From positions 32,001 through 96,000 of the IMG/VR virus record IMGVR_UViG_3300045988_170206: DNA of 64,000 nucleotides, one strand, 5' to 3'. Each line of letters starts with the position of its first letter. The first letter of the stretch is position 1. Under the pieces are notes generated by a model that saw only the letters and a list, made by a program, of their open reading frames with translations, ran no database searches and was not told the origin of the DNA. The position numbers and the translations under genes were made by a program. This stretch comes from a virus. Shown piece by piece: positions 37,319 to 59,736 of this stretch.

Positions 37319-40300
37319 GCTTGTTCCTTGTTCTTCATCTGCTGGCGGTAGTTGGCGATGCCGCCGCCGATCATGGAGGCGAGGCTGCGCACGCCCCTGG
37401 ATGCGACGTTGGCGGCTCCCATGGCGAGGGTGCCGGTGAGGCCTGCGGTGATGCGCCAGGTCTTGCTCAGGCCTCCGAGGTCGGTGCGCTGCCAGGTCTT
37501 GCGCGTGTAGTCGCTGGCGTTGCGTTGGCCTGTGGAGAGGATGTGCGTGGCGGCGGACATGGCGCGCTGCATTTCGTCGTAGCGTCGCACGCCTGATGGT
37601 GTGCCGTTGATGGTGCTCCAGGTCTGGCGGTCGAACTCTTCGCCTTCGATGCTGATGTGCTGGAGGAGCGGCATGTCAGCGAAGAGCTGGGAGATTGACG
37701 AGTCGGGCTTGTACCCGAGGTCGGGGCAGACGTAGGAGCAATAGAAGTCCCAGGAGTCGAAGGACAGTCGGCGCAGGTTGGGCATCTCCCGTAGGACGGT
37801 CCAGTTCATGATGGGCGCGATGTTGGAGGAGCGGATCGCGTCGGTCATGTACGGGGGGATGACTTGGTTGTTGCGCCAGTCGTCGGTTACCTGGGTGCGG
37901 TAGGCGACTCCGTTCATGATGATGGTTTCGCCGACGACTCCGACGCGCTTGACGCGAGCCCAGGTGCCGGCCCATTCGTTCATGTCGGCGTAGAGCGCTG
38001 CTTGCACTGCGTCGGGGGTCATCTCTGTGGGGGTGATGGTGCGGGGGGTGCTGGTGTTGAACTCGTAGCCGCCGCCGGTGGTGGGTCGCACGGGGCTGGT
38101 GGAGTAGTCCCATGTGGGGGCGGGCGCGTCGGGTTCGTCGGGCATGGCCATGCGGTCGGCGTTGGGGTCGGTGGTGTCGTCCATGTCGGGGACGGTGGGG
38201 GCCGGGGGCATGGGTGGCGGTGGGGGGACAGGTGGGATTGGCGCAGTGGGTGTGGCGACGGTCGGGGGTTGGGGGATCGCTGTGTGCGCGTCTTGGGTGT
38301 CGCTGGCGGCGCGCTCGGCGGCTGGCTTATCGTCGTCGCCGGTGAGGCCGCTCATGTCCCACTCTTCTGCGTCGCTGCCCGCGAGCGCGAAGCCGCTGTT
38401 GGTGTCTTCTGACTCGAAGGCCTGGGGGTAGACGTGACGGAATAGGGTGACGGACTGGGGATCGTACTCGTAGCCCTGGAAGACGTTGTAGATGTCCTCG
38501 ACGGAGGCGATCCACTGCGGGCGCAGGTCGGACACCCATTCTTGCCAGGTGCCCTCGTAGCCGAGTTTGCGGACGGTGAGGTTCGCTGCGTCGGAGAGCT
38601 TCTGGAGTGTGGCCGCGGCTTGCTCGCGGGTGACTCCGGCTTTCGCGAGGTAGCCCTCAAAGCCGAGGGAGGGGTCGAGCTCGCCGGTGTCGGTGGACAC
38701 GTCGCGTCGGACGGCTTCTACGTCCACGCCTGCACTCTTCATGTAGGAGATGGAGTTGTTCCAGCAGTAGCCGTCTTCACTGCCGTCGGCGAACAGGAGG
38801 CCGGGGCGCAGGTAGGTGGCGGTGCGCGCGACGGATTCGTCGCCGTTCATGATCTTGTGGATGTTATCGCCGCTGAATCCGGGGAGGTAGGCGAAGCATC
38901 GCATGGTGGAGGACAGCTTGTCGGAGGCGTAGGAGCCGGGGGTGAGCTGGTTCAGGTAGTTGCGTCCAGGGTGATGGCCGATGAGCACGTCGGTCTTGCC
39001 GATGGAGGCGTAGCTGTAGATGAAGTTGTCAGCCTCCTTGAAGGGGATCGAGATGTTCTTCGTGCTGGCGTTGAGCGGTTTGCCTGCGGGGAAGAACTGG
39101 CCGATGTCAGTGACGGGGTTGACGGGATCCTGGCCGATCATGAAAACGCGGGAGCGTTTGGCTTCGGCGTTGTTGAAGCCTGCGTTGCGTAGCTGGGATA
39201 GTTTCTCGAAGGAGCGGCGCATCATGAAGTACATGCTGGTAAACCACAGTTCGCCGGGGTTCACTTCCTGCTTGGGCTTCTTCTTGTCGTCGAAGTCGGA
39301 CTGCTCCCACGCGACCCACTCGGACTCGTAGTTCGTGTAGCACATGTGGCCTTGCATGTTGGACTGGAAGAACGTCTGGATCTGCTGGTTCGTGTTACTG
39401 ATTTCATCGAACACGATGCAAATACCGTCTTTTCCGCCTAGTTGTTCAGCGATTTCGGGGCTGATTGTGCGGGCTGCGAGCATTCCGAGCGCGAGGATCA
39501 TGTATCGCAGGTAGACGACGGTGCCGAGGGTGCCCGTGTAGCCGGGGGCCCACGCGAGGTTGTTCTTGTTCAGGTACTCGGGGATGTGGGCGCGGGCTTC
39601 GAGCTCGGCGACCTTTGCTGCCGTGTACTGCATGAACATGTCCGTACCCTCTTCGGGGTTGCTGGCGATGTTCGAGCCGTTGATGACGAAAGCGTCGGGG
39701 TTGATCGACAGGAGAAGAGAGGCCATGTCGGGCTTGTTGTCGCCCAGGCCCGGCGCGATGCCGGCGATGAGGTGCATTGCAAGGATCGTCTGCGTGGTCA
39801 GGCCCTTACCGGATCGGGAGCCCGCGAAGATGCCGTGGCTGGTGTGATCGTTGAACTGCCTGATCTCCTTGCCGGTGGTCACTACGTCATCATCGAGGCC
39901 GATGCCGAGGATCATGTTGCTGGCGCTGGGCTTGCGTCCCTGGCGTTGCATCGCGTCGAGGATCTTGCCTGCCCACACGGGTGAGGCGTTGGCGAGTACC
40001 TTGTCCATGTCGTGCCGGAACTCCCAGAAGATCCCCTCGTTGATGGGGTCGTAGTTCTGGGCTGTTGTGCCGCCTGCGAAGCCGAGGGCTTCGACGATGG
40101 CGCGCTCGACGATGTTCTCGCTGAAGCCTTCGTAGGGGGTGAGGACTCGGACCTTGACCTTGACGGGGATGTTGCTCGGGGAGTTGTCGTAGGCGGAGAC
40201 GAGGACGCACGTCGTCATGGCCTTGTAGATGCTCTCGAGCGCGCCGACGACCTTGGTCATCATGGAGGGGTCGTGGTAGGCGAGGCCGTTGTCGGCTTCG

Positions 40301-41895
40301 CTCTTGAGGAGGGCGCGGACGACGGCGGTGAGCATGGCTTGCAGGCTCTTCTTGACTTCGCGTTCGCGGTAGGTGTCCCAGGAGGATGCGTCGCTGTGGC
40401 GGGGGTAGAGGTCTTGCGCGCCGTCGTTGGACTCTCGTCCAAAGGCATACTCGAGCATCTTGTAGGGGAAGTAGAAGCGTGTGCCGTTGGGGTAGGTGTT
40501 GCCCTGGCGGTCCTTCCCGTTAATCAGGATCTCGGCGATCTCGTTGATGTTTCTCGTCGGCATGGGGGTCAAGTGCTGCGCTGCTTGGATCTGTTCCCAG
40601 AGGCGCAGGAGGACGAGGTTGTGGGTGCGCTGGTAGGCGCGTCCGTCGGAGGAGAGGGCCATGAGTCGGCCTTGGCCTTCTTCGTCGCAGGTGAGGACAC
40701 CGGCGGGCTGGAGGACGCTGTAGCCGGACTTGAAGATGCGGTCGTACTCGTCGAGGATGCTTTCGGCGCGGGCGACGATCTGGCCTTGGTAGAAGGTCAT
40801 GGCCTCTTCGGGCACGTTGTCGCCGGCGGTTTCACCATTGAGGGCTGCGAGTACCTTGTCGATGGTGATGTCGCGGGTGATCTTCTCGAAGCCCAGGTTC
40901 GTGCGCGCATCCTGGGGGAGGGAGGCGAGGTAGAGGGCGGCTGAGCGTTCGTCGCTGGCTGCGTCAAGGAGGATGCCGCGGCTTTGAGAGTTGACCTTGG
41001 AGGCGAGTGCCTTGTGGTTGGCGAGGGTTGGCCACCATCCTGGCTGCGTGTCGAGGTCGGTGAGGTCGCGACACTGGGAGGCCATCGCCGCCGTGTAGGG
41101 CTCGCCTTTTTCGAGGCTGGCTTTGAGAAGGGCCAGGATCTTGGTGTGGTGGGGGCTGGTCTCGAAGTCGTGGAGACGATCAGCGAGGTCGTCGCCGGGG
41201 GTGTCCTCGTCGGGCGCGGGGATGCGGGCGGGCGCGTCCGTGTCGGTGTCGTCGCGCATCTGCTCGCGCTTGGGGGCCTTGAGGGAGGACAGGTAGGTCT
41301 CGAGGGTACCGCCGATCTGGTCGGAGGCGTAGACGTTGGGGGCGAGCTGGTAGGACTCGACGACCTGCGCGAAGGGGCGCAGTTGCGTGTAGTGGCCGTG
41401 TGTGGCGAAGTCGGTGGCCAGAGCGAGGCGCGCGCCTTCGGGTGCGTCGGGGATGAGGGGGCGGGGGTCGCCTTTCGCGCCGGAATGGGCCGACATGTAG
41501 GCTTCGCGTTCGAGGCGCAGGCTCCGGGCGATCTGCTCGATGGGGGGCATGATGTCGTCGGGGATCTGGTAGTAGCCGCCAAGGCGCACGCCTTCACTGA
41601 ACATGCTTTCGACGTTGACTCCCTCGAACATGCTGGCGGGGGCGACGATGGCTTCGAGTGCGCCGAACTGCTTGTGGGAGAGGGCGCGCAGCGGAGACTT
41701 CGACGTGGAGGAAGGTTTCGTGGCGGCGCGCGTGAGCTCGCCCTTCGTTTTGCCGTGACGTTCCACGTACACGCCGTCATGGGCGATGATGAGGGTCTTG
41801 ACCGTGTTGGGGGTCCATGTCCCGTAGTCGGTGCCGTCGCCGTCGGTGATGTAGTGGCCTCCGAGGGCCTTGATGGTGTCGTCGTAGGTAGTCAC
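37315..41895 (-). CDS. Giant (1526 aa) soluble P-loop protein with a TraG/VirD4- or FtsK-HerA-like ATPase core, a Pro-rich linker and a distinct C-terminal domain
   Basis: Walker A FAGSRSGKGLTT, Walker B ICIVFDEISN about 120 aa later, then RVFMIGQD. No N-terminal TM. PPVPPPPPMPPAPT linker. GTG start. Confidence 0.6.
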   Translation of the reverse strand: MTTYDDTIKALGGHYITDGDGTDYGTWTPNTVKTLIIAHDGVYVERHGKTKGELTRAATKPSSTSKSPLRALSHKQFGALEAIVAPASMFEGVNVESMFSEGVRLGGYYQIPDDIMPPIEQIARSLRLEREAYMSAHSGAKGDPRPLIPDAPEGARLALATDFATHGHYTQLRPFAQVVESYQLAPNVYASDQIGGTLETYLSSLKAPKREQMRDDTDTDAPARIPAPDEDTPGDDLADRLHDFETSPHHTKILALLKASLEKGEPYTAAMASQCRDLTDLDTQPGWWPTLANHKALASKVNSQSRGILLDAASDERSAALYLASLPQDARTNLGFEKITRDITIDKVLAALNGETAGDNVPEEAMTFYQGQIVARAESILDEYDRIFKSGYSVLQPAGVLTCDEEGQGRLMALSSDGRAYQRTHNLVLLRLWEQIQAAQHLTPMPTRNINEIAEILINGKDRQGNTYPNGTRFYFPYKMLEYAFGRESNDGAQDLYPRHSDASSWDTYREREVKKSLQAMLTAVVRALLKSEADNGLAYHDPSMMTKVVGALESIYKAMTTCVLVSAYDNSPSNIPVKVKVRVLTPYEGFSENIVERAIVEALGFAGGTTAQNYDPINEGIFWEFRHDMDKVLANASPVWAGKILDAMQRQGRKPSASNMILGIGLDDDVVTTGKEIRQFNDHTSHGIFAGSRSGKGLTTQTILAMHLIAGIAPGLGDNKPDMASLLLSINPDAFVINGSNIASNPEEGTDMFMQYTAAKVAELEARAHIPEYLNKNNLAWAPGYTGTLGTVVYLRYMILALGMLAARTISPEIAEQLGGKDGICIVFDEISNTNQQIQTFFQSNMQGHMCYTNYESEWVAWEQSDFDDKKKPKQEVNPGELWFTSMYFMMRRSFEKLSQLRNAGFNNAEAKRSRVFMIGQDPVNPVTDIGQFFPAGKPLNASTKNISIPFKEADNFIYSYASIGKTDVLIGHHPGRNYLNQLTPGSYASDKLSSTMRCFAYLPGFSGDNIHKIMNGDESVARTATYLRPGLLFADGSEDGYCWNNSISYMKSAGVDVEAVRRDVSTDTGELDPSLGFEGYLAKAGVTREQAAATLQKLSDAANLTVRKLGYEGTWQEWVSDLRPQWIASVEDIYNVFQGYEYDPQSVTLFRHVYPQAFESEDTNSGFALAGSDAEEWDMSGLTGDDDKPAAERAASDTQDAHTAIPQPPTVATPTAPIPPVPPPPPMPPAPTVPDMDDTTDPNADRMAMPDEPDAPAPTWDYSTSPVRPTTGGGYEFNTSTPRTITPTEMTPDAVQAALYADMNEWAGTWARVKRVGVVGETIIMNGVAYRTQVTDDWRNNQVIPPYMTDAIRSSNIAPIMNWTVLREMPNLRRLSFDSWDFYCSYVCPDLGYKPDSSISQLFADMPLLQHISIEGEEFDRQTWSTINGTPSGVRRYDEMQRAMSAATHILSTGQRNASDYTRKTWQRTDLGGLSKTWRITAGLTGTLAMGAANVASRGVRSLASMIGGGIANYRQQMKNKEQA

Positions 41896-42089
41896 GAGGA
41901 CTCTACCTTTCCGTTGTGGTCGCAGGTGTTCAGTGTGTGAGTGTTAGTGCTGGCGGGATGGTGCCCGTAATGCAGGGCACCCCCACCCATCGAGCGCTTG
42001 TCTCGCTGGTTGCGTCACCTGGTGGCAATAGGTGGCGTTCTCGGCGAGGGGCGTATCGGGGTGAGGGTGCGGCCTGTGGGGGACTGGGG

Positions 42090-42248
42090 TCACCAGTCGG
42101 AGCCACCTCCAGCGGAAGCGGTAGCGATGTCGCTGCGACCTTCGGCGCGGATTTTGCTGCGCTCGACTGCGCGACCGACCTTGTAGCCGATGAAGGCGGG
42201 AACGCCAATGACGGCGATGATGGCGAGGATTGTGAGGGCCAAGTGCAT
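42090..42248 (-). CDS. Small membrane protein (52 aa)
   Basis: MHLALTILAIIAVIGVPAFIGYKVGRAVERSK... Below the ORF-track cutoff. AAAGGA upstream. G/C-rich third positions. Confidence 0.4.
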   Translation of the reverse strand: MHLALTILAIIAVIGVPAFIGYKVGRAVERSKIRAEGRSDIATASAGGGSDW

Positions 42249-42272
42249 GATGGGTCCTTTGCTTGGTTGGGG

Positions 42273-42526
42273 TTAGGCTACGACGAGTGCCGCGGCCTTT
42301 TCGATGCGGTCGGGGCGGAACCCGCCCCAGGTCTCCAGGATAGCGCCGTCCCCACTGCGGACTGCGACGACAGGCGCTTGGCTGTATCCGAGGCCCTTGA
42401 TGAGGTTGAGGGAGTCCTCATCCTTGGTGACATCAACGGACTCGTGGCCACGCCCAGCTTCTTGAGCTTCCTGTAGGTCGCGTCGCACTGGGGGCAGCGG
42501 GGCTTGGAGTAGACGGTGATCGACAT
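42273..42526 (-). pseudogene. nrdH: NrdH-type glutaredoxin-like protein interrupted by a -1 frameshift
   Basis: Frame A gives MSITVYSKPRCPQCDATYRKLKKLGV. Frame B gives HESVDVTKDEDSLNLIKGLGYSQAPVV...WGGFRPDRIEKA. The frames meet at about 42446-42448 (GTGGCC|ACGAG). One extra C would restore an ~84-aa NrdH with the CxxC and WxGFRP hallmarks. Confidence 0.75.
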
Positions 42527-42761
42527 GAGTGGTTCCTTCCTATCCCCACGGTGGGGGCTTGGGTTTGGTCTTCTGGGTTACGAGTATCCATCGTGGGGAG
42601 CGTCATGAGTGTAGCGGCGCACCCAAGGGTGGACATGTGCCCATCATGCCACACAAACTCAGACGTGCACGAACTGGACAGGCCATTCGCAGCGTAAATG
42701 TGCGAGATGCCTAGACGTTCTGTGCTGTTAGGCGCAGATATGTTGCCTCAGAGGTGAGGGG

Positions 42762-42861
42762 GTAGTCCAAGTTTTGGATGACGTTCACCACCCAAGCAGG
42801 TCACTTTTTCGGGGGGGGGTAGTCCAAGTTTGAGACGACCCCGTAGTCCAAGTTCTGGACG
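42762..42861 (+). promoter_or_regulatory. Three direct copies of GTAGTCCAAGTT(N)(T/G)(G/A)GA(C/T)G in the divergent hub (candidate operator or promoter element)
   Basis: Copies at 42762-42780, 42819-42837 and 42843-42861. A G9 run at 42811-42819 abuts copy 2. Confidence 0.5.
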
Positions 42862-43058
42862 TAAACGTATATAGAAACCATTGAAGATAAAGAACTACCC
42901 CCTCTAGTCCCCCAAGCCGTTCACGCGAGGCTGTCCAAAGCGCATGGCTGGTTGAGCAGGCGCGCGCTTCGCGCACGCGAGCGAGAGACACACGTAGTTG
43001 AATTGCACACAAAGGGAGGTGTGTGTAGACTGACGATCACCAGAAAGGAAGGAGCAAC

Positions 43059-43499
43059 ATGCTTACCACCGACCCCGTTATCCAGGCAGGCGTACTCGCC
43101 ACACGCGAGTGCATGATCCCCGGAAGAGCCCGAATCAAGCACTCTGTCCAGTGCTTCCTCCGAGAGCTCATGAGGGAATGGCCTACTGACGAAAGCGAAG
43201 ATCTCCTCTTCAGCATCACCGCCGCCTCTAAGCGCGTTGGCCTCGACCGCTCCGTCCTGTATGTCGGACGGCGCAACCTCGTCGCTGACGACGCGATACG
43301 TTTCCGCCAGCGCGAAGACGGCGGCATCGTCTACTACGTGGACTGGGCCAAGATCGTCAACGCTTACGGTATGAAGCGTCTTGGCGTTCAGGCTCACGGC
43401 GAGTCTCACTCGTTCGAGTCTGCGGGGTGTCCCAAGGAGCCTTGCACCCCGGAGCCGGACCCGAAACAGCACAAGCGCTCATCCAAGAAGGGAGAATGA
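43059..43499 (+). CDS. Small DNA-binding protein candidate (HTH, Xis/MerR-like)
   Basis: Strong RBS GGAAGGAG. FSITAASKRVGLDRSVLYVGRRNL resembles an HTH_17-type motif. Confidence 0.55.
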   Translation: MLTTDPVIQAGVLATRECMIPGRARIKHSVQCFLRELMREWPTDESEDLLFSITAASKRVGLDRSVLYVGRRNLVADDAIRFRQREDGGIVYYVDWAKIVNAYGMKRLGVQAHGESHSFESAGCPKEPCTPEPDPKQHKRSSKKGE

Positions 43500-43502
43500 G
43501 CG

Positions 43503-44138
43503 ATGTCTAGCTTCGAAGAGTGCAACGCGCAGCTCGCAGCACCCAAGCGCACGGGGGAAGATAGCCCCCTGTACGGTCTGGGAGCTGTGTCCCACCCGGC
43601 CATCGCAGTCATCCATTTCGACCCGCTGCTGGAGCACAAGCTCACGCGCAAAGAGAGGGCCTTCATGGTCTGGTTCTTCACGCGCTGGAACGATCCCTAC
43701 GTTGAGTACGACGTTGAGGGGATCATGAAGCTGACAAACATGAAGCGCGATGAAGTGCACATGACTCTCTACAACCTGTGCGCGCGCGACATCATCCGCA
43801 TGAAGGCCATGCAGCGGAAGGATGACGAGACAAAGGTTGCGGTCTTCCTGTACTTCGAGCCCTCCCACCTTTTCGTGCCCGAAGCTGTGAACCTGGCTGG
43901 CTGCTTCAATGGGTGTGTCCACTCGTTCTCCGAGTGGGTTGACCCCGCACGACCAGTCACCCTCGAAGAGATCGAAGCGTCACTGCCTACCTACGAGTGG
44001 ATCGATCCGCGCAACATGAAGTGGCTTCAAGCCCAGCGCGAGAAGGGGAGCAACCAGACCCGAACGCAGAAACGTCTTGCTTTCGAGGCTCAGGCCAAGA
44101 AGGACGAAGCCGGGGCGGAAACCCGGACGCAGAAGTAA
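43503..44138 (+). CDS. Winged-helix (MarR-like) protein, paralog 1
   Basis: LTRKERAFMVWFFTRW...GIMKLTNMKRDEVHMTLYNLCARDIIRM..VAVFLYF aligns with the N-domain of the next gene. Confidence 0.6.
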   Translation: MSSFEECNAQLAAPKRTGEDSPLYGLGAVSHPAIAVIHFDPLLEHKLTRKERAFMVWFFTRWNDPYVEYDVEGIMKLTNMKRDEVHMTLYNLCARDIIRMKAMQRKDDETKVAVFLYFEPSHLFVPEAVNLAGCFNGCVHSFSEWVDPARPVTLEEIEASLPTYEWIDPRNMKWLQAQREKGSNQTRTQKRLAFEAQAKKDEAGAETRTQK

Positions 44139-44143
44139 AAGCA

Positions 44144-44173
44144 AGAGGGGGAACCCCTTGAGGCTCCCCCTCT
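44144..44173 (+). terminator. Short hairpin after the 43503-44138 gene
   Basis: AGAGGGGGA (44144-44152) pairs with TCCCCCTCT (44165-44173), 12-nt loop. Confidence 0.35.
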
Positions 44174-44214
44174 CTCATAGAAAGATAGCTATATTGTATC
44201 AGCTTTTTGACGGA

Positions 44215-45642
44215 ATGCACGTGTCTGCACTCCACGCTGCCGTCAACTTCCGCAAGCACCTCAAGGTGGACCTGAGTCGCAGGGAAGTTCTGACACTCAT
44301 GGCGCTGTTCACCTTCTGGCAGTGCAAGATCATCAGCCCCTCCTACAACCTCCTCCTCGAGCGGTGTGTTGGCGCAAAGCGCTCCACGATGTTCACCGCC
44401 ATGAAGTCCCTCGAGGACCGAGGCCTCCTCATTCGACGCTCGTTCCTGGATCGCAAGGACGGGTCGCGCCACGTCGTGTTCTTCCTGGACCTCCCTGGGA
44501 TCTTCACCGACGAATGCTGCGCGCAGCTCGACTCCGATCCCAAGTCGCCGATCACGACCCGTCACACCATCGAAGTGGGGCGAACTGCCAGCACTGAGGA
44601 AATCCTCGCCATGGTCACGTTCGCTGACGTGTCCCAGTGGCAGGAAATCGACTGCAAGCTGACACGTAGGAAGCTGCCACTAGGTAACTTCGACGACCTA
44701 AGCGGCTTCCTCCTGCCCTGCCCGGACAACTTTCCTGTGCACGAAGAGGAAGAGCCAAAGCCGGAGCTGTGCGTCGCAGTCAGCGACAACCAAGGCGATC
44801 TCTTCGACATGCTGCACGAAGCGAAGACACAGGAAACCAGCAACAAGGCCGCGGCAACGCATGGCACGGAAGACCAAGGCGCATATGGCACGTTGTGGCC
44901 TACTGCCGCCACCATCCCTGGCGGCTCAGTGTGGACCCCTGCCGACGTGGAGGACACGTCCACGGTGCCCGCTACTCCAGCAGCGGGAGAGAGCGTCCAG
45001 GAGCGCGCTGAGCGCATCATCCGCGACCATCCTGGCGACGACATGATCGATGCTGAGATCATCGACGTGGAGATCGTCGAAGACGAAACCCCCTCGGACG
45101 CGCTGATCGACGTTCCCGCGTCCCAGGAGCTCGCCATCGCCACCCCTGCGGTGCCCGTGAAGGCCAAGAAGCAGACCGGCTACACCGATGACTTTGAGAA
45201 CTTCTGGCGCACCTACCCGCGCCGCATCGAGAAGAAGTCCGCCTTCAAGGCATGGAAGACTGCGCTCAAGAGCGGAGCAACCGCCGACGAGATCACCGCA
45301 GGCGCAGCCCGCTACGCCAAGTACCGCGCAGGCGAACCCGAGCGCTTCACAAAGCACCCCTCGACCTGGCTCAACCAGGGATGCTGGGAGGACGAGTACT
45401 CGACCGCCGGCATCGGCTACGGATACAACGGCGGCAACGGCACTGGCCTCGTTGCTCGCACACCAGAGGAGGCCGAATACCTCCGCCAGCTCGACAACTC
45501 CTGCTCGGAGATGTTCTACCGCAGCCTCGGCTTCAACAGCGCTGAGGAATACGTTGAGTACCAGCGAGGAATCGCCGAACTCAACGCCCGAGAAGCCGAA
45601 GCTGCATACGCCGAAGCCGCAGCCCGACGCATCGCTTTCTGA
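44215..45642 (+). CDS. Winged-helix paralog 2 fused to an acidic linker and a C-terminal FxxFWxxYP...WLNxxCW module (candidate replication initiator or replisome organiser)
   Basis: LSRREVLTLMALFTFW...STMFTAMKSLEDRGLLIRR..HVVFFL. C-terminus DDFENFWRTYPRRIEKKSAFKAWKTAL...HPSTWLNQGCWEDEY. Start after the hairpin. The track extension from 44077 is rejected. Confidence 0.5.
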   Translation: MHVSALHAAVNFRKHLKVDLSRREVLTLMALFTFWQCKIISPSYNLLLERCVGAKRSTMFTAMKSLEDRGLLIRRSFLDRKDGSRHVVFFLDLPGIFTDECCAQLDSDPKSPITTRHTIEVGRTASTEEILAMVTFADVSQWQEIDCKLTRRKLPLGNFDDLSGFLLPCPDNFPVHEEEEPKPELCVAVSDNQGDLFDMLHEAKTQETSNKAAATHGTEDQGAYGTLWPTAATIPGGSVWTPADVEDTSTVPATPAAGESVQERAERIIRDHPGDDMIDAEIIDVEIVEDETPSDALIDVPASQELAIATPAVPVKAKKQTGYTDDFENFWRTYPRRIEKKSAFKAWKTALKSGATADEITAGAARYAKYRAGEPERFTKHPSTWLNQGCWEDEYSTAGIGYGYNGGNGTGLVARTPEEAEYLRQLDNSCSEMFYRSLGFNSAEEYVEYQRGIAELNAREAEAAYAEAAARRIAF

Positions 45643-45660
45643 CCCCGAAAAGAGCCTCCA

Positions 45661-46464: not shown

Positions 46465-46477
46465 GAAATCGCACACC

Positions 46478-46894: not shown

Positions 46895-47959
46895 ATGAAC
46901 ACCCAGGAAATCACGCTGGACCACAACAGCGACGACGGCCTCTACACGAAACTCCTACGAGGCCGCTACGTTACCAGCGTCGAAGGCAGCATCATCACTC
47001 TCGACGACGGGACAGAACTCCACATCTACGGCAACGAAGGATGCGGCGGCTGCTCGAGCGGCTGGTACTGGCTCGAAGAAACCTTCAAGCGCGGCAACCG
47101 CAAGGCCCGTATCATGAGCGCCTACGTAGCCTACAGTGAGGACAGGACAGAAGACGAACCTGCCAGATCCGTCTACACGATCTTCGTGCTGGTGGACGGC
47201 AACCCCACCCAGCTTCCCCTCGCGACCGTGCGGGGCACCGACGGCAACGGCTACTACGGCACCGGCTTCACGCTCACCGCCACCATCCAAAAGCCCCCGA
47301 CAGTGACCGCCACGGTCACGTCACGGGACATCATCAACGCGCTCGTGGACGGGCAAACACCCTCTGATGTCCCTGACATCCGCAACCGTGAAGACCTCCT
47401 CAACGCCGTCGTCTACACGCTCCAGCAGACGCGGGGCTTCGACTCTCCTCTGCGCATCACCGGGCCAGAGGCCCAGCTTTTCCGCAAGCTGGCCTCTATT
47501 CAGTACGGAGACCGCGGCCCCTACTATGTGGGCGCATGGTATGGCTTCCACCAAACACTCCTCCTCTGGTTTGCCGACATGGAGGGAGGCCTATCCCTCG
47601 TCCTGCGCGACTTATCCAACGGAGCGGAAGGCTACGTGGCGAAACTACGCGACTTTACAGAACGAGTGCGCGCCTCCAAGGAGCCTATCAAGACCTTCGT
47701 CACCGGCTACGACTTGAAAGGCGACACAGCCACCGTCAACGGAGTCCGAGTGCCGGCCACCGACTTCCTCCTCTCCGAAGTCTGCGGCTTCCACGGCAAT
47801 CGCATCGGCTACGAGAGCACTTACATCCATGATTGGATCTTCTTCCGCTACGGCGCGCGCATCATCAAGCACCGTGCAGGCGGACGCGGAGACGTTACAA
47901 TCACCTCAGACACCCAGAGCGTTTGGGCAGTAAACCCCCAGAAAGGCATCGCATCATGA
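46895..47959 (+). CDS. Hypothetical protein, member 1 of the GNEGCGxC family
   Basis: ITLDDGTELHIYGNEGCGGCSSGWY...ARIMSAYV...YTIFVLVDGNP..LPLATVRGTDGNGYYGTGF. C-terminal GDTATVNGVRVPA. Full-length paralog of 54551-55651. Confidence 0.8.
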   Translation: MNTQEITLDHNSDDGLYTKLLRGRYVTSVEGSIITLDDGTELHIYGNEGCGGCSSGWYWLEETFKRGNRKARIMSAYVAYSEDRTEDEPARSVYTIFVLVDGNPTQLPLATVRGTDGNGYYGTGFTLTATIQKPPTVTATVTSRDIINALVDGQTPSDVPDIRNREDLLNAVVYTLQQTRGFDSPLRITGPEAQLFRKLASIQYGDRGPYYVGAWYGFHQTLLLWFADMEGGLSLVLRDLSNGAEGYVAKLRDFTERVRASKEPIKTFVTGYDLKGDTATVNGVRVPATDFLLSEVCGFHGNRIGYESTYIHDWIFFRYGARIIKHRAGGRGDVTITSDTQSVWAVNPQKGIAS

Positions 47960-50043: not shown

Positions 50044-50277
50044 GGCCACCAGCTCCTTCGACGTTCCCAATGCTCCATCTCTCACAGCTGCGCGAACTCG
50101 AGCGCAGACAGATACAGAGTAACAACGCACACAACAAGCAACCTGTAGCAGCAGGCCAATACACAGCCCCCTCCACGCCTTACGCCGCAGGAGTCTAAGT
50201 TGGATTACATGGCTTGCGCGACCGTCCAACCTAGACTACAGTCTAACCCAAGGAACTCAGAAAGAAAGAAGGCCGTC

Positions 50278-51052: not shown

Positions 51053-51053
51053 C

Positions 51054-52309: not shown

Positions 52310-52419
52310 CCTCCTCATGTATGAAGCGCTCCTCCCCACTGACCACCAGGGGAGGGGTGCTTCCATATGTGGAGGGTTATCGAAAGTGGGCACCCATTAT
52401 GGACTTGCGCCAACTTGCA

Positions 52420-52438
52420 GTAGTCCAATATGGGATAT
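52420..52438 (+). promoter_or_regulatory. GTAGTCCAA motif copy lying in the spacer of a putative promoter
   Basis: TTGCAG (52415-52420), 17 nt containing GTAGTCCAATATGGGA, then TAGGCT (52438-52443), 24 nt before the 52468 ATG, with a GAAAGGAG RBS in between. Confidence 0.4.
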
Positions 52439-52467
52439 AGGCTGAGGGGCAGAAAGGAGTCCCCTCT

Positions 52468-52995
52468 ATGGCCGCACGTAAGGCGATTCTTGCCCTCGAC
52501 TTCGACGAGGTGTTCATCCTCGCTCCCGGCACCCCAACCGCGAAAGGGGCATACTCAGATCGTGCCCGCACTCTGGTCACGGTCAAGCTCGACAGCGGAC
52601 TCGTGGGCACGGGGGATGTCTGGTACTCGCCCCGCATGATCGAAGCCCTCAACGTCATCGTCAGCGACTCAGACAAGATTCTCCTCGCCTCATCGTGGGG
52701 CAAAGCGAGCATGAAAGCAGTGAAGGCCGTGGGCCTGCACCTCCCGCGTCGAAAGACCGTCAACCTGTTCCCATACCTCACGCCGGGCACCATCAGCCAG
52801 GAGCGCAAGCTCCGCCGTGCCCACGACCTCATCCTCGACCACCTCACCGACACAGACACCCGCATCGCATGGGTGGACGACCAGCACCCCCGAGGCTACG
52901 GGCAGGTAGACGGTATCAACACTATCGGCACCGACCCCATCACCGGCTTAACCCGAGCTGACCTCGCGCACATCCGCGACGTGCTCTTCTACTGA
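52468..52995 (+). CDS. HAD-superfamily-like phosphatase
   Basis: Motif I LALDFDEV, LASSWG, C-terminal IAWVDDQ. Weak call made by eye. Confidence 0.45.
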   Translation: MAARKAILALDFDEVFILAPGTPTAKGAYSDRARTLVTVKLDSGLVGTGDVWYSPRMIEALNVIVSDSDKILLASSWGKASMKAVKAVGLHLPRRKTVNLFPYLTPGTISQERKLRRAHDLILDHLTDTDTRIAWVDDQHPRGYGQVDGINTIGTDPITGLTRADLAHIRDVLFY

Positions 52996-53007
52996 AAGGA
53001 ACCACCC

Positions 53008-53727
53008 ATGCCATTGACGCTCAAGTGGGCGAACGGCACCTGCACGGGCGACCTCACGCAGGTCGCGAGCCTCGTTACGGCCATCACCCAGAAGAAGCCC
53101 TGGACACAGACGACACGCAAGCCTGGTGGGCTCATCGTGTGGCAGAAGTGGGACGAGTCGGAGCAACTAATGTCAGTGGGTGACCCCACCATCGCTGACG
53201 ACCTCGCCGACCTCCTCGCCGACCACCTGGGAGTCCCCCAGGACGAGGTGACCATCAAGCCTGACCCGCGTGACTCGTCGCAGCTGACCGCCAGCGAACT
53301 ACGCGCTCGACGACTCCGCGCCCACCTCAGCAAGGCCGATCTCGCTGAGATGTGTGGTGTCAATGCGTACACGGTGCGCAACTGGGAGCAAGGCGTGCGC
53401 ACCGTCATCCCCACCCGACTCCTGCGCGTTTTCCAGCGCCTCGACTCCTACAGGGAGGAAGCCCATACAACAGTCCACGCCGAAGCAGTGCGCCTCGCCG
53501 GAAACGAGGACGCGCTCACGCAGACTGACTTCACCGGCTACGCCGTCTACGCGCCCAACGACCACGCATACGCAACCCTCTGGCCGGACGCTGTAATCAA
53601 CGCCGACATGTGGCGTGATGTCATCATCGAGTGCGGGCGCTTCCGCACCGTTGCAAGCGACTACGAGGCAAGACTCATGGGCCTTAAGCTCATGACCATC
53701 GAACCACCACGAAAGGGCAAGCCATGA
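53008..53727 (+). CDS. XRE-family HTH protein with extra N- and C-terminal domains
   Basis: LRARRLRAHLSKADLAEMCGVNAYTVRNWEQGVRTV. Confidence 0.7.
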   Translation: MPLTLKWANGTCTGDLTQVASLVTAITQKKPWTQTTRKPGGLIVWQKWDESEQLMSVGDPTIADDLADLLADHLGVPQDEVTIKPDPRDSSQLTASELRARRLRAHLSKADLAEMCGVNAYTVRNWEQGVRTVIPTRLLRVFQRLDSYREEAHTTVHAEAVRLAGNEDALTQTDFTGYAVYAPNDHAYATLWPDAVINADMWRDVIIECGRFRTVASDYEARLMGLKLMTIEPPRKGKP

Positions 53728-54539
53728 GAATCGCGCCAGCGCCACAACAACCAGAGCGGCCCACCCTCGAGACCGCCTGGGTCGAAGACGAGAGCGCCCC
53801 TGCGCCATCGCGTAAGCGCGCCATCATCGTCATCCTCATCGCCGTTGTCGCTCTCATCGCGTCAGGTGTCGCAGCATGGGTGTGGAGCACCCCCCAGCCG
53901 CAAACACCCGCACCCCAGCCTGCGGCTACACAGACGGCACGCGCGTACACGGCCAGCGACTACGAGGAAAACCGCGCAATCTGCCGAGAGATGTACGAGA
54001 CCCGCGACCTCCAGCTCTACTGGTCATGCGTCGTCGGCGACATCCGCCTCGGACAGGAAACAGACCCAGCGGTCCCGCTCACGGATCTGCCACCCGTCCG
54101 CCTAGCACCAAAGGCCAGCCTCGGAGGCCAAACCGACATCGCCTTCGCGCCCGACGCAACCGCGCGATGCTACGCCACCGGCTACTGCCTCACCGACGCA
54201 ACCTTCAACGCGGGCCACACCAACGTCAAGGTCATGTTCACGCGAGGCGACGGCGACATCATGGGCATCTTCGTCCCCACAACAGACGCGTCCACCGTCA
54301 TGACGCAAGAAGTCCTTGCACCCTACATGCCCACCGGAGCCGCCCCGGACCCCACCGTCCACCAGGCGACCCTCAGCCGCATCCACATGGGAGCCGACAC
54401 CCTCGTCGGCTACGTGTTCTCACAGCCCCGCTACTGCGGCGACACGCCCGACGAGTGCTCCGCAAAGTACACGGCCCGCACACCCATCCCCTTCACGGGC
54501 ACCACACACATCACCACCCAAGCCGAAGCCCAGAACTGA
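53724..54539 (+). CDS. Single-pass membrane-anchored extracytoplasmic protein (271 aa)
   Basis: ATGA overlap with the upstream gene. TM AIIVILIAVVALIASGVAAWVW. Confidence 0.7.
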   Translation: MRIAPAPQQPERPTLETAWVEDESAPAPSRKRAIIVILIAVVALIASGVAAWVWSTPQPQTPAPQPAATQTARAYTASDYEENRAICREMYETRDLQLYWSCVVGDIRLGQETDPAVPLTDLPPVRLAPKASLGGQTDIAFAPDATARCYATGYCLTDATFNAGHTNVKVMFTRGDGDIMGIFVPTTDASTVMTQEVLAPYMPTGAAPDPTVHQATLSRIHMGADTLVGYVFSQPRYCGDTPDECSAKYTARTPIPFTGTTHITTQAEAQN

Positions 54540-54550
54540 GAGAGTCCGTC

Positions 54551-55651
54551 ATGTCAGTCGAGAGAACCACCATCGAGCACTACGCGCCCAGTAGCGACTT
54601 CGCGCGCGTCCTCCAAGGCCGCTACGTCGTGGAGATCGACGAAGAGTTCGACACCATCACTCTCGACGACGGCACGATCCTCGAGGTCGAAGGCAACGAA
54701 GGATGCGGATGGTGCAGGTCAGGCTGGTACGACTTCATCAACGTCTTCAAGCAGGGCGACAGCCACGCGCGCATCATGAGCGCCCACGTCGCCTGCGACA
54801 TCGACGAGGAGAACGACGATGAGGGAGCAGTTGACCCACACGTCTACACCCTGTTCGTCATGGTGGACGGCAACCCAGGGTTCCTGCCTCTCGCGACGAT
54901 CCGCGGCGACGACGGTGCTGGCGGTTACGGCACCGGGTTTAGGATCTTCGCGAACGTCGTTGTCCCTCCGACTTCGGCGACGCGCCAAGACCTAGCCAAC
55001 GCCATAGCAGGAGGCCTCTACCCGCTCAACGACACAACGGAAGATGTGCTCACCTTCGTCGCAGGCATCCTCTACGACGCGCGTGGAGCTAACGTCCCCG
55101 TCCGCATCTGCGGCGATGAGGCAACCCGCTTTCACGTGGACCTTCTGGATATGCGCGACCAGACCGACAAGGAGATCGGCCTGCCCTACAAGCCGTCATT
55201 CCATCACCTCGAGAATGGCCTCACTCTCCTATGGCACAAAGACACGGACGGTAGCTTCACGTTCGTCCTTCGAGACCTGAGAGCCCACACGGGAGGACTC
55301 AGCGTGTATGCGCGAAACCTCAGCGCCTTCCTCAACGCCATCCACGAGCGCGCACAGCACGCCGAAGTCGTCAGGTTTGTAGCCGCATCAGCATCACGCA
55401 ACAACTACCTCACAGTAGACGGCGAACGCATCCCCTCATGCGGTTTCCTCCTGTCGGAACTCGACGGCACCTACATGTACGCCGAACAGGAACGATCTGA
55501 CCAACTCGACAAGCCAAGCCAATACGTCATGAACCAGAAAACCGGCAGAGAAATGCGCTATACCTCAAACCTGCGCACCATCAAGCCACTCGCCGATAAC
55601 GGAGTGATCCTCGTGGCCACAAGCGATACGAAGGACGTGTGGGCGCTCTAA
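54551..55651 (+). CDS. Hypothetical protein, member 2 of the GNEGCGxC family
   Basis: ITLDDGTILEVEGNEGCGWCRSGWY..ARIMSAHV..YTLFVMVDGNPGFLPLATIRGDDGAGGYGTGF. The N-terminal 225 aa of the 53876 track ORF are an out-of-frame shadow. Confidence 0.8.
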   Translation: MSVERTTIEHYAPSSDFARVLQGRYVVEIDEEFDTITLDDGTILEVEGNEGCGWCRSGWYDFINVFKQGDSHARIMSAHVACDIDEENDDEGAVDPHVYTLFVMVDGNPGFLPLATIRGDDGAGGYGTGFRIFANVVVPPTSATRQDLANAIAGGLYPLNDTTEDVLTFVAGILYDARGANVPVRICGDEATRFHVDLLDMRDQTDKEIGLPYKPSFHHLENGLTLLWHKDTDGSFTFVLRDLRAHTGGLSVYARNLSAFLNAIHERAQHAEVVRFVAASASRNNYLTVDGERIPSCGFLLSELDGTYMYAEQERSDQLDKPSQYVMNQKTGREMRYTSNLRTIKPLADNGVILVATSDTKDVWAL

Positions 55652-55725
55652 GCGGCGTTACGTTGCATCCTGCTCATCAGCGGATGCTCACACCGTGAAC
55701 CGTCCGCGCACGAAAGGAAACCGTC

Positions 55726-56889
55726 ATGGCGCTCATCAACAAGGACACGCGCATCGCGCGATACTCAGCCGAAGAAGGCGTGGGCTGGGTGCCCCTCGTC
55801 CCCGGCCTGGAAACATCCCCGTCGTTCGACAAGTACCTGGAAGAAACCGGCTACTACATCAACGACTACAGCGACCGTGATGAAGACAATCTGCTTCGAG
55901 ACTCACTCTTGGACCCTCTGGGCCCCGTGTGGGACGACATGAACGAAGAGTTCCTGCTCGACCTCTACGAGGGCTGGGGCCACATCCCCATGGTCGGCCC
56001 GGACACTCCCGTCTTCGCGTTCGTCGAAGGCAAAGCCCCCACCTCGGCACCACTGTCGAAGGCCATCAGCTCACCCCTGATCGGCGGAGGCGAAACACTC
56101 GCCCTGAAAGTCCTGCACGAAGTCGCTGACAGGCGGAACATCTACGTCCCCAGCGACGCGACCGTGTACGACGTTCTGAACCTCATCAGCATGGCAACAA
56201 ACAGCCCCCTCTGGGCCCTCAACTGCCTCCTACGCGCCCAAAGCAGCCAGAGCGGCAACCAGCTCACACTCGGCTACCACGAGAACCAACGCGAAAGCAG
56301 CTGGATCGCAGCCACCCACAACAGCGGCTACGCCTGCGCCTTCGACCTACTCGACCAAGACCTACGACGCGACTACGGCGTGAACTACGTGATCGTCCCC
56401 GACGACGACCACAACGACTACTTCTACACCAACGCCCAGTACCGCGACAAGAACATGAAAGTCATGCGATACAAGGAAAACGGCGTAGTCGGAGACGCTA
56501 TCGAACTACTCGACCTCGACGGCGGCAACGCATACCCCAACCTCCATGGATGCCAGCCCAAGACACGAATGCCTGAACTCCTGCGTCTCGACAAGTACCT
56601 CGCGACGATGAAAAACCTGCCCCAAGGTACTCAGGTACCCATCGCGATCTACTCCACCAACAAGGGGGACACAATCACGATCAACGGTACACGCATCCCC
56701 GCATTCAAGATCGTCGCCGAAGACCTCTACGAGCGCTGTGAACTCTACGACCGCACCGACTTCCGAGTCATGCGGCAACCCATCCGCTCATACGGTCGCT
56801 TCCAACTGCGCCCACAGTTCGGCAAGCACATCCTCACTCCAACACCCAGCGGGAACGCCGTCCTCGCCCACATCCAGAAGCAACGGTGA
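55726..56889 (+). CDS. Hypothetical protein (387 aa) sharing the C-terminal TITxNG motif
   Basis: ..IAIYSTNKGDTITINGTRIPAFKIVAEDL. Confidence 0.75.
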   Translation: MALINKDTRIARYSAEEGVGWVPLVPGLETSPSFDKYLEETGYYINDYSDRDEDNLLRDSLLDPLGPVWDDMNEEFLLDLYEGWGHIPMVGPDTPVFAFVEGKAPTSAPLSKAISSPLIGGGETLALKVLHEVADRRNIYVPSDATVYDVLNLISMATNSPLWALNCLLRAQSSQSGNQLTLGYHENQRESSWIAATHNSGYACAFDLLDQDLRRDYGVNYVIVPDDDHNDYFYTNAQYRDKNMKVMRYKENGVVGDAIELLDLDGGNAYPNLHGCQPKTRMPELLRLDKYLATMKNLPQGTQVPIAIYSTNKGDTITINGTRIPAFKIVAEDLYERCELYDRTDFRVMRQPIRSYGRFQLRPQFGKHILTPTPSGNAVLAHIQKQR

Positions 56890-56895
56890 CACCAC

Positions 56896-57825
56896 ATGCG
56901 CATCAACGACAAGTCCCTCTTCCCCTACCGGGGGAAGTACGGTTCGCGCCCACCCCTCAACTTTGGGCGCACCAAAACCCACATGCAAAGCTCCATCGGA
57001 ACCAGCATCCTCCTCACCGACGCATACGACGGCCTCATCGGCCCCGTCTGGATCGCCATTCCCGACCCGGCGTTCAGCGACCCCGAGACGATGCCGGTTC
57101 CCCCCTACAAAATCGCCGTAAACCTACGCGCCCGCGAAGTCATCAACCAGACAGTCACGCCCCAGGTTGAGATCGTGGCCTACGCACGTACACACATGTC
57201 CCCCGCGTCTGCGATGCAGGCCAGCATCGACGCGATTGTTCACTTTCCAGGTGGCGGAGCTGGGCTTGCTGAGGTCACCAAAACACGAGACAATCCCAAC
57301 GGCCCAGGCAAGGTGACACGAACATCGACCCTAAAGCCAGACAGTCACCTCGTCATTGGAGCCAACGAGGTCTGGCCCGTAGACCCGATCCCCGTGCGCA
57401 CATGGTCAGGCCGCAACCCCGTGTACGTCCTCCACGCCGACGACGTGAAGAATATGTCCGACAAGACCCTCGACCTCATCCTCCGACGCACCCCATCCGT
57501 GCTCGCACACAACCGAGGTCGCGAGTACGGTGAAATCTGGGACGAAGAACTCGAACAAGACCCAACCGACTGGGACACCCCGTTCCTCCTACGTATTCTC
57601 GCGCGCAGCATCCCCGGAAACACCAAGGTCGGACGATCAGACACCCAAACCAAAGGCCTGTGGACGTACTGGGTGAGCCGCGACGGGCGCAAGCCCCGTA
57701 AGCTCGCCGACTTCACCAACCCGCTGGTCTACACTGGAGCGACCCTCAGCTTCCTCGCCTGGAGCGTGTACGGAAACCTCGAGGAAGACCTCGCAAGAAA
57801 GACAGAAGACCTGCTCCACCGTTAA
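56896..57825 (+). CDS. Hypothetical protein (309 aa)
   Basis: Long ORF in operon register. Confidence 0.75.
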   Translation: MRINDKSLFPYRGKYGSRPPLNFGRTKTHMQSSIGTSILLTDAYDGLIGPVWIAIPDPAFSDPETMPVPPYKIAVNLRAREVINQTVTPQVEIVAYARTHMSPASAMQASIDAIVHFPGGGAGLAEVTKTRDNPNGPGKVTRTSTLKPDSHLVIGANEVWPVDPIPVRTWSGRNPVYVLHADDVKNMSDKTLDLILRRTPSVLAHNRGREYGEIWDEELEQDPTDWDTPFLLRILARSIPGNTKVGRSDTQTKGLWTYWVSRDGRKPRKLADFTNPLVYTGATLSFLAWSVYGNLEEDLARKTEDLLHR

Positions 57826-57845
57826 CCCCCGAAAGGGAACCCCAC

Positions 57846-59039
57846 ATGCTCACACGCGCCCGACGAGTACTCCTCGCTCTCATCGCCGCGGCCACCGTCA
57901 TGCTGCCGCTCACCCCAGCTCCCGCATACGCTCTCCCAGCCAACCCCAATGTCTCCGATGAGGTCATCGAGGCGAACTGGGCGACCCTATCCGCTGAGCA
58001 GCAGGAAGCAGCCAAGCAGGTTGTTGCAGAAGCCAAGGCCGAAGGCTACTCGGCGGAGGCCGCAGCGGCCATCGCCGGTAACTTCTGGCGCGAGTCCCAC
58101 TTCAACGTGGACGCAGTGAACGCCTCATCGGGCGCGTGTGGCATGTACCAGGCCCTCGGAGATCGACAGACCCTCCTGTTCACCTACAACGGAGTCTCAG
58201 GCTGTTCAGGCCTCAAAGCCAAAGAAACCACCCAAGCGGCGCTCGCGGACGGACGCAGCGAATGGCTCGGCTGGCCCACCACCAGCAGCATCTACGGCGG
58301 CATGGCATCCTACGCGCTCAACGAAGCCGACACCTGGGGCATCACCGGCGGCACCGTCCCCTCCGCCGACGACTCATTCGGGAGCCTCGAAGGCTTCAAG
58401 AGCACCGACAACTGGTACTTCGCGACCTGGATCTGGATGACGAACTGGGAAGCCCCCGGCGCAGCTGAAGCAGGCTTCATGGAGCGCGCCTCCTACGCTG
58501 CAACCGTCCTCAAGAAAGTCGGCAACACCGACCCCACCGCAAAGTCCACCACAAGCGGCGCACAGTCCGGCTCAGGCGGGGGAGTCCTCGACGAGTGGTC
58601 CCTCCCTGGTATGCCCAAGAAACCCGAAATCACTAAAGGCCAGTCCCTCACGTTCGCGGACGGTTCACAGCTCACGGCGAAGCAGCGCGCAAACGCCTCC
58701 GACCTGAAAACGCAGCTCGAAGAAGAACGGGACCGAGAAGCAGCTGAGTCAGCTCGAACATGGGTCGCCGTCGTCGGTGTCGTCCTGTTTGTCTACGCTC
58801 TCGTCATCCTCCTAGCCCTCCTGATCGACCTGTCGTTCCCGCTGTTCTCTGTCCTCAAGGGTGTGACCTTCGGGCGGATCAAGTACTCACCGCTACCAGC
58901 CGACGAGCGCCCGAAAGGCACCTACGGAGTCGCCGGAGTCCTAGCCACCTGTTTCGCCTTCGCAGCCCTCGGTGCCCTCATCTTCACGGGCGTGATCCAA
59001 ACCTGGCTCGCGCACCTCGTCATCGCTCTCACCTCTTGA
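57846..59039 (+). CDS. Secreted lysozyme-like peptidoglycan hydrolase (phage-tail-lysozyme-type domain) with 2 C-terminal TMs
   Basis: Signal peptide. AAAIAGNFWRESHFNVDAVNASSGACGMYQALGDR. C-terminal TMs VAVVGVVLFVYALVILLALLI and VAGVLATCFAFAALGALIF. Confidence 0.6.
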   Translation: MLTRARRVLLALIAAATVMLPLTPAPAYALPANPNVSDEVIEANWATLSAEQQEAAKQVVAEAKAEGYSAEAAAAIAGNFWRESHFNVDAVNASSGACGMYQALGDRQTLLFTYNGVSGCSGLKAKETTQAALADGRSEWLGWPTTSSIYGGMASYALNEADTWGITGGTVPSADDSFGSLEGFKSTDNWYFATWIWMTNWEAPGAAEAGFMERASYAATVLKKVGNTDPTAKSTTSGAQSGSGGGVLDEWSLPGMPKKPEITKGQSLTFADGSQLTAKQRANASDLKTQLEEERDREAAESARTWVAVVGVVLFVYALVILLALLIDLSFPLFSVLKGVTFGRIKYSPLPADERPKGTYGVAGVLATCFAFAALGALIFTGVIQTWLAHLVIALTS

Positions 59040-59052
59040 AAGGAACCCTCCC

Positions 59053-59736
59053 ATGACCCGCCAGTCCGAAACCGACTTCGCAACGAACCTCGTCACCAAG
59101 TACGGGCAGCAATGCGCCGAGCTCTTCGCCCTGTTCCTCCACACCATCCCCCTCGGATGCTCATGGGCGTTCCTGCACCCCCAGCAGGTCGAAGACCTTG
59201 GCCTGCCCTGCAACCCAGAAGGCCCCGTCCCCCTCATCTGGGATCCCCAACACAAAGCGGTCACCACTCGCACCGCCGCCAACGCGAACGCCTCCACCCT
59301 GACGTTCGTCCTCATCCCCGTCGTCGGTGGCTTCATCCTCGAAACCGCCTACAGCGTCGCCGTCAACGTCATCGAACAGTGCGGGGGACTCTACGACGAA
59401 GACATCCTCACGACAGCGGGGGAGAGCCGCACCAAAGCCAAGGAGCTGTTCGCTAAGCGCCTCGAAAAAGCAATCAACGACGGTGGCGAGCTCCGCTTCG
59501 GCTACTACTGCGTCAACGGCTCCCAGACGATCACCATGAACGGTGTCGCCTACCCCGCCTACTCGCTCCCACTACGCGCCATCGCCGAAATCGCAGCACA
59601 ACAGGGCCTCTCCTTCCGCGTCCCCCAACATGCCCCCATCCTGGCCTCCACTGTCGCCGCAAGCCCCTGGGACACCCTCTCCCGATCAGTTGCAGCCCCC
59701 TCTGGCAACGCAATCCTCGGATCCCTCGCCCGCTGA
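59053..59736 (+). CDS. Hypothetical protein (227 aa) carrying the TITMNGVAYP motif
   Basis: ..YYCVNGSQTITMNGVAYPAYSLPL. Shares 9 of 11 aligned residues with GETIIMNGVAY in the C-terminus of the 1526-aa ATPase (TI and MNGVAY identical in both). Confidence 0.75.
   Translation: MTRQSETDFATNLVTKYGQQCAELFALFLHTIPLGCSWAFLHPQQVEDLGLPCNPEGPVPLIWDPQHKAVTTRTAANANASTLTFVLIPVVGGFILETAYSVAVNVIEQCGGLYDEDILTTAGESRTKAKELFAKRLEKAINDGGELRFGYYCVNGSQTITMNGVAYPAYSLPLRAIAEIAAQQGLSFRVPQHAPILASTVAASPWDTLSRSVAAPSGNAILGSLAR

Follow-up and report, generated by a model that had tools for sequence, protein, structure and literature searches.

Does a short string that recurs in five proteins of one mobile element mark a domain common to all of them, and what might such a domain connect? 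The question is raised by a 64,000-nucleotide stretch of the IMG/VR record IMGVR_UViG_3300045988_170206 (positions 32,001 to 96,000; the whole stretch is called the window in the following), in which a preliminary description had noticed a motif with a central N-G pair in four proteins encoded on the right arm and in the C-terminal part of a giant P-loop ATPase. Genes and proteins are named here by the start position of the gene. One homolog carries the name of a metagenome-assembled Schaalia sp. genome, and the element is therefore referred to as Schaalia-type. With a probability of about 60%, the motif is the hairpin of a C-terminal module, which is carried by the 55726 and 59053 proteins, in diverged form by the 46895 and 54551 proteins, but not by the giant protein, and which has a putative docking role. 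All five strings were located in the translations where they had been reported:

47720 to 47758, plus strand: GDTATVNGVRVPA, amino acids 276-288 of the 46895 gene product
55403 to 55438, plus strand: NYLTVDGERIPS, amino acids 285-296 of the 54551 gene product
56665 to 56703, plus strand: GDTITINGTRIPA, amino acids 314-326 of the 55726 gene product
59521 to 59559, plus strand: SQTITMNGVAYPA, amino acids 157-169 of the 59053 gene product
37894 to 37932, minus strand: GETIIMNGVAYRT, amino acids 1322-1334 of the 1526-amino-acid giant protein, a look-alike hairpin outside the family module

Nine identities among eleven aligned residues had been counted between the giant and the 59053 strings; the correct number is eight, namely TI and MNGVAY, which are indeed identical in both. 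Shuffling of the segments around the motif, which the preliminary description had proposed, placed the four right-arm proteins above chance: 55726 against 59053 reached z = 9.7, with the downstream flank independently at z = 4.1, 46895 against 55726 reached z = 9.9 with a signal centred on the motif, and 54551 against 55726 reached z = 4.4. The flanks of the giant string, however, gave z-scores of about 0, and beyond approximately nine residues nothing is alignable between the giant protein and the family described below. Hence, the small domain once suggested for all five proteins is firm for 55726 and 59053 and probable for the pair 46895/54551, whereas the giant ATPase has to be taken out of the group.

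The canonical carrier of the module is the 59053 protein:

59053 to 59736, plus strand: 59053 protein, 227 amino acids, canonical family member with an N-terminal domain containing an invariant G-C-x-W and the C-terminal module
59356 to 59733, plus strand: C-terminal module of 59053 (amino acids 102-227), with a domain-only AlphaFold2 model at a predicted local distance difference test score (pLDDT) of 89.4

The four C-terminal regions served as queries in an exhaustive HMMER search of 1.84 billion cluster representatives (50% identity), which returned only 13 proteins, including distant 59053-like proteins with the pattern G(I/V)(F/Y)CTN-SQTIT(I/V)-G-x-x-YPA(F/Y) and a C-terminal APSxNA. A follow-up profile search enlarged the family to 105 members, nearly all of them 205-250 amino acids long and without a relevant Pfam domain. 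The 59053 protein aligns end to end with 88 homologs, in which G35, C36 and W38 of an N-terminal N-x-x-N-G-C-x-W-E motif are invariant, and is matched over its full length by the family profile (E-value 6e-46). AlphaFold2 modeled the whole protein with a pLDDT of 88 and a predicted template modeling score of 0.83. The module model runs from a long helix through a strand, a loop, a strand, the N-G turn, a strand, a helix and two short helices to a final strand. In these confident models, the motif is predicted to be strand 2, the N-G turn and strand 3, i.e., a beta-hairpin, of a three-stranded meander.

Searches of Pfam, PHROGs, NCBIfam and PADLOC, the latter including defence and anti-defence models, gave no match to the 59053-type family or its module, and a Pfam scan across 89 family members revealed no consistent weak signal. 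Likewise, Foldseek returned nothing significant from PDB (whole-protein and domain-only models) or BFVD (whole-protein model). Beta-grasp and Atg8/GABARAP-like domains, in which an N-terminal helix is also followed by a mixed sheet with helices, were the top-ranked hits, but an E-value of ~0.6, a probability of at most 0.07, a template modeling score of ~0.2 and a root-mean-square deviation above 12 Å do not amount to a match. No family member was found in sequenced plasmids and phages, whether queried with a real member or with the consensus of the hidden Markov model, and the six frames of the window hold no module copies beyond those of the four proteins. A family of more than 100 proteins from large uncultivated elements without a database or fold match is thus an unannotated, candidate new domain family. 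In one of its proteins (P0026, L055 10001-11128), the module is tandem-duplicated within 375 amino acids. Two apparent domain fusions were set aside as clues: P0101, a full family protein followed by a C-terminal DUF4268, was judged unreliable, and P0112, whose sequence changes to a SpoIIP fragment in the middle of the motif, lies on a contig of 992 bp and probably results from chimeric assembly.

The three other right-arm proteins are encoded upstream of 59053:

55726 to 56889, plus strand: 55726 protein, 387 amino acids, divergent paralog; module at amino acids 257-384 (56494-56886), motif at 56665-56703
46895 to 47959, plus strand: 46895 protein, 354 amino acids; DUF7448 at 46961-47272, C-terminal region at 47588-47956, motif at 47720-47758
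54551 to 55651, plus strand: 54551 protein, 366 amino acids, full-length paralog of 46895 with the same architecture; C-terminal region at 55268-55648

Judged by sequence, 55726 and 59053 certainly share the module. BLASTP aligns them over ~110 amino acids up to the C-terminus and matches 55726 to distant members (E-value 3e-7), an 89-sequence family profile built without 55726 recovers its C-terminus (E-value 4e-11), and hhalign aligns it with the family over the 125 columns of the whole module (family residues ~102-226) with a probability of 96.9% and an E-value of 1.7e-10. The N-terminus of 55726 is unrelated to, or extended relative to, that of 59053. The proteins 46895 and 54551 are full-length paralogs (BLASTP E-value 7e-64) with a different N-terminal part, which in 46895 comprises ~105 amino acids and matches DUF7448 (PF24240; E-value 6e-8, 33.4 bits against a gathering cut-off of 27). 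Both match phrog_2131, and 54551 is tied to DUF7448 only by this match and its paralogy to 46895. The DUF7448 and phrog_2131 models cover the N-terminus only and leave the motif-bearing C-terminal region outside, while 55726 and 59053 are devoid of DUF7448. This C-terminal region probably represents a diverged module copy. T161, G164, P168, A169 and E176 are retained in 55726 as well as in 46895, and 54551 keeps four of these residues with S at position 169; neither of the two giant proteins (window and pXO16) has this signature. In a 204-amino-acid relative of 46895 (P0024), DUF7448 leads straight into the motif (…TLTATVNGTRVPA…), the intervening region being deleted. The longest open reading frame around the 54551 gene begins at 53876 (53876-55651) and adds an Arg/His/Pro-rich extension of 225 amino acids that overlaps the gene 53724-54539; this start was rejected as an out-of-frame artefact of high G+C, and the gene calls of a related locus (L001) support 54551.

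The surroundings of the family gene offer a clue to the function of the module. Two neighbours in the window are of relevance:

57846 to 59039, plus strand: Phage_lysozyme2-type hydrolase, directly upstream of 59053
60750 to 62564, plus strand: ParB_N/HNH protein, the best-conserved marker common to the distant elements (E-values 1e-71 to 1e-78) and the plasmid pXO16

In five loci of four distant elements (contigs of 34-230 kilobases (kb); L007, L008, L009, L056, L057), the family gene occupies a conserved order of GyrB, GyrA/TopoIV, DnaB, others, the hydrolase or a protein with its C-terminal ~150 amino acids, the family gene, a DnaG-type Zn-ribbon gene, others and ParB/HNH. What the distant elements preserve, in the product of a gene immediately or shortly before the family gene, is the C-terminal part of the hydrolase (58572-59036 in the window). 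Within 10 kb to either side, the module occurs once per distant locus, and a set of four module-bearing proteins is, according to these comparisons, specific to the Schaalia-type element. The gene order is not shown by a sixth locus (L055), where the family gene lies ~9 kb upstream of Cas3/Cas5d genes with Thg1-like and DNA ligase genes in between.

A C-terminal module of ~110-125 amino acids would accordingly define an unannotated family, and its canonical form, a 59053-type protein of ~215 amino acids, would be encoded by a conserved single-copy gene in large pXO16-like elements of 130-480 kb. This gene would lie inside the replication gene block, upstream of ParB/HNH and preceded by the gene for a cell-wall hydrolase (or for a protein sharing the C-terminal domain of the hydrolase). 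In the Schaalia-type element, the module would have spread, with 55726 as a paralog featuring an extra N-terminal region and 46895/54551 with a more diverged copy; such copying of a modular domain within a mobile element is ordinary in itself. Since one module occurs on three N-terminal architectures and the adjacency to the hydrolase gene is conserved, it most likely represents a common docking or assembly module, i.e., a folded domain which would deliver different N-terminal domains to the same partner encoded by the element. For the four right-arm proteins, carrying the same module would reasonably suggest a common partner or ligand. The best candidate would be the conserved C-terminal domain of the neighbouring hydrolase, not the ATPase.

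Several points weigh against this reading. The conserved polar residues of the module (N155, D156, S157, T161, R196, S217, N219), together with its mildly positive net charge (mean +3.2 in 86 distant members, +9 in 55726), would also fit a ligand- or nucleic-acid-binding site. For 46895/54551, the family profile gives weak matches in hmmsearch (E-values 5-10), hhalign probabilities against the module range from 15 to 81% over 18-66 columns, and shuffling yields no significance for the flanks by themselves between 46895 and 55726. Finally, pure chance is not a comfortable explanation of the string shared by the giant protein and 59053, which is rarer than a simple shuffle null predicts.

The first of these points leads to the alternative that survives best, although it is unlikely as a whole: the module could be a nucleic-acid-binding domain of the replication or DNA-processing block, e.g., of a primase or helicase accessory factor, with the paralogs targeting further activities to the same DNA structure. 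The basic charge of the module would suit this role, as would the position of the distant family gene between DnaB and the DnaG-type Zn-ribbon gene and upstream of ParB/HNH. Nevertheless, the conserved residues are mostly small or polar and not basic, the whole module-bearing proteins are acidic (-4 to -25), and the fold searches of PDB and BFVD gave no resemblance to known DNA-binding folds. Moreover, the immediate conserved neighbour of the family gene is a cell-wall hydrolase.

A more doubtful alternative confines the module to 55726 and 59053; the DUF7448 pair, like the giant protein, would then resemble them in a short hairpin without common ancestry. Besides the weak profile matches and the insignificant flanks of 46895, the probability of only 15% obtained for 46895 by hhalign with the full-length alignment speaks for it. 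Still, BLASTP aligns 46895 and 55726 over 81 amino acids (E-value 1.7e-4), their z-score is high, and local hhalign comparisons of 46895/54551 reach probabilities of 62-81% (P ~1e-5 to 7e-5). The alignment of 46895 is collinear over 66 columns, including the preceding and the following helix, the T-G-PA-E signature is retained in the pair, and all four proteins have the motif region in their C-terminal part. For 46895/54551, a diverged module copy therefore remains the preferred interpretation.

The giant protein calls for a separate treatment:

37315 to 41895, minus strand: giant protein, 1526 amino acids; Walker A AGSRSGKG at 39796-39825, Walker B IVFDE at 39397-39420
37318 to 38112, minus strand: its C-terminal domain (amino acids 1262-1526), which follows a proline-rich linker and ends in a Gly/Ala-rich hydrophobic tail

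Among annotated proteins, its sole relative is a hypothetical protein of pXO16 (1440 or 1445 amino acids), found by local BLASTP, which supplied the informative diverged homolog; a word-based search and scans of IMG/VR (two), metagenomes and GTDB genomes (two) for diverged homologs of the C-terminal domain gave only 96-100% identical copies, one 69% fragment without the motif region, or nothing. The C-terminal domain aligns with the pXO16 homolog over 210 amino acids (E-value 2e-9; C-terminal segments alone 6e-13), and amino acids 1304-1505 are homologous. As this alignment runs through the motif position, with GETIIMNGVAYRTQV against DGSLIINNQKYSKKI, the giant protein has inherited its hairpin as part of its own C-terminal domain. 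Across more than 40 related contigs, this domain is conserved at or near 100% (96-100%), the giant proteins are 90-98% identical where the whole protein was compared, and the linker just before the domain (amino acids 1181-1219) is the most variable part. The hydrophobic tail is also present in the pXO16 homolog and may serve as a membrane anchor. In our reading by eye, the domain extends into segments resembling leucine-rich repeats; no leucine-rich-repeat model matched.

Profiles reveal no relationship between the giant protein and the family: the family profile scores it at E-values of 22-52, and hhalign aligns its C-terminus over nine columns with a probability of 1.1-1.5% (1.4% with the pXO16 homolog added). 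Only two of the 17 family positions conserved at 88% or more are matched by the giant protein and none by its pXO16 counterpart. G147, G150, N155, D156, T161, P168 and A169 are missing, and at position 164, where the family has an invariant G, the pXO16 giant carries N. The giant lineage keeps I161, N163 and Y167, the family T161, G164, P168 and A169. Judged by these comparisons, the giant ATPase does not contain the family module, and its resemblance to 59053 is chance or convergence on a common hairpin sequence type. A recent DNA exchange or repeat behind the match was rejected, for the 30 of 39 identical nucleotides occur solely at identical residues with preferred C-ending codons, the DNA identity is limited to ~25 nucleotides of such shared codons, the flanks diverge at once, and the repeat search does not connect both sites. 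An internal control is provided by a 1463-amino-acid Ig-domain adhesin (19144-23535), whose MTATVNGTQVA (amino acids 632-642, 21614-21639) shares seven of 11 residues with the 46895 motif and 85% of the DNA over 26 nucleotides (against 47726-47751), which indicates that hairpin-type strings recur in unrelated beta-rich proteins.

It is consequently very improbable that all five proteins share one small domain which marks docking to, or translocation by, the giant ATPase as a coupling protein, as the preliminary description had envisaged. This idea could draw on the nine-residue match between giant and 59053, which is unusual under shuffling (the BLOSUM62 score of 40 for the 11-mer was reached by one of 300 shuffled proteomes), on an order of helix, strand, turn and strand before and through the motif that looks similar by eye in giant and family, and on the hairpin core kept between the giant proteins of Schaalia and pXO16. 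In addition, conjugation of pXO16 is unconventional, with two ATPases and no known relaxase (PMC9673590). Apart from the missing family residues, the random flanks and the codon-based DNA similarity, however, the giant-59053 identities fall mostly on family-variable positions (M162, N163, V165, A166), and the exhaustive profile search recovered no giant protein.

That the giant protein is a coupling protein is equally unsupported beyond Walker A and B, which it has in common with the type IV coupling proteins VirD4, TraG and TrwB and which are the only recognisable motifs conserved between it and the pXO16 homolog. Its Walker A AGSRSGKG presumably recalls the xxTRSGKG form of VirD4/TraG. The giant protein matched no family of Pfam, NCBIfam, PHROG or PADLOC, T4SS-DNA_transf and TraG-type models included, and a comparison with PDB sequences was empty even with a two-sequence profile. 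General scans (Pfam for 30 window proteins, PHROGs for 20, NCBIfam and PADLOC for smaller sets) turned up no relaxase or VirB4. Many type IV secretion signals are C-terminal, like the motif-bearing regions described here, but they are disordered charged tails, whereas the module is a folded domain of ~120 amino acids. As the module is not in the ATPase, the idea of a signal for docking to, or translocation by, a coupling protein loses its basis, there is no support for a tag by which the giant ATPase recognises substrates, and the alternative that all five proteins bind a common ligand such as DNA ends falls with the same link. It would be a long shot to regard the 59053-type family as a core, unrecognised part of a pXO16-type transfer and replication machinery with the module as recognition domain and the giant hairpin as its convergent mimic; if true, module-bearing proteins (here four) would be recruited to or exported by this machinery, the hairpin in the membrane-proximal C-terminal domain of the giant protein would engage the same site, e.g., by strand pairing, and a 59053-type component would be spread across Bacillota and Actinomycetota.

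The remaining features of the window concern the element as a whole. Its G+C content is 62%. The minus strand carries the genes of the first ~42.5 kb, the plus strand those that follow. Left-arm genes code for sortase-type pilins, Ig-domain adhesins, a Ser/Thr kinase, a ParM-like actin and NlpC/P60, right-arm genes for a replication initiator besides the Phage_lysozyme2 hydrolase and the ParB_N/HNH protein. GC skew and AT skew change sign at ~42-43 kb (window 1-42500 against 42500-64000). As this coincides with the divergence of transcription, the flip is a consequence of gene orientation and does not have to indicate an origin. C and A are enriched on the coding strand, in agreement with a strong preference for C-ending codons (G+C at third codon positions ~0.8). 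The intergenic gap 36205-36609, which is situated downstream of the giant-protein operon and ahead of the cluster with the ParM-like actin gene, holds an iteron-like array of about six copies of a ~17-21-nucleotide unit (AGGTNCAACCTNTATCT) at spacings of 21 and 107 nucleotides, a candidate centromere (parC) or set of origin iterons. Copies of the element with 90-100% identity occur on metagenome and IMG/VR contigs of 130-144 kb. IMG/VR lists the element as viral (contigs of 135-144 kb), despite the lack of a phage match for its two signature proteins, the giant and the ParB/HNH protein.

Among known systems, the closest comparison is offered by pXO16 (pBTHD789-1, NC_018516) of Bacillus thuringiensis sv. 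israelensis. Homologs of both signature proteins were found in this plasmid alone among 72,556 plasmids (PLSDB), and no phage homolog of either was found among 50,697 records (INPHARED). The giant protein of pXO16 shares 25.6% identity over ~800 amino acids, plus the C-terminal domain, and its ParB/HNH homolog 31% over ~450 amino acids. Both elements are large and carry mostly hypothetical genes as well as surface adhesins. Unlike the window element, pXO16 contains no 59053-family member in the 74 kb examined, nor did a consensus tblastn against all plasmids find one; its host belongs to the Bacillota and its size is 350 kb, compared to Actinomycetota and ~135-144 kb for the window element. 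For pXO16, a novel transfer locus ("tip") with two ATPases and a cell-wall hydrolase was described, the hydrolase and transfer genes lying inside the replication region, along with a suspected phage-like nature and no known relaxase or oriT (PMC9673590, PMC6199540). Given this transfer mechanism without a known relaxase or oriT, conserved genes beside hydrolase- and ParB/HNH-type genes are reasonable targets for genetics. With co-occurring homologs of the giant Walker-motif and the ParB/HNH proteins, the window element appears to belong to a broad, undescribed class of pXO16-like elements that extends to oral Actinomycetota, and the 59053-type family helps to define this class from Bacillus to oral Schaalia.

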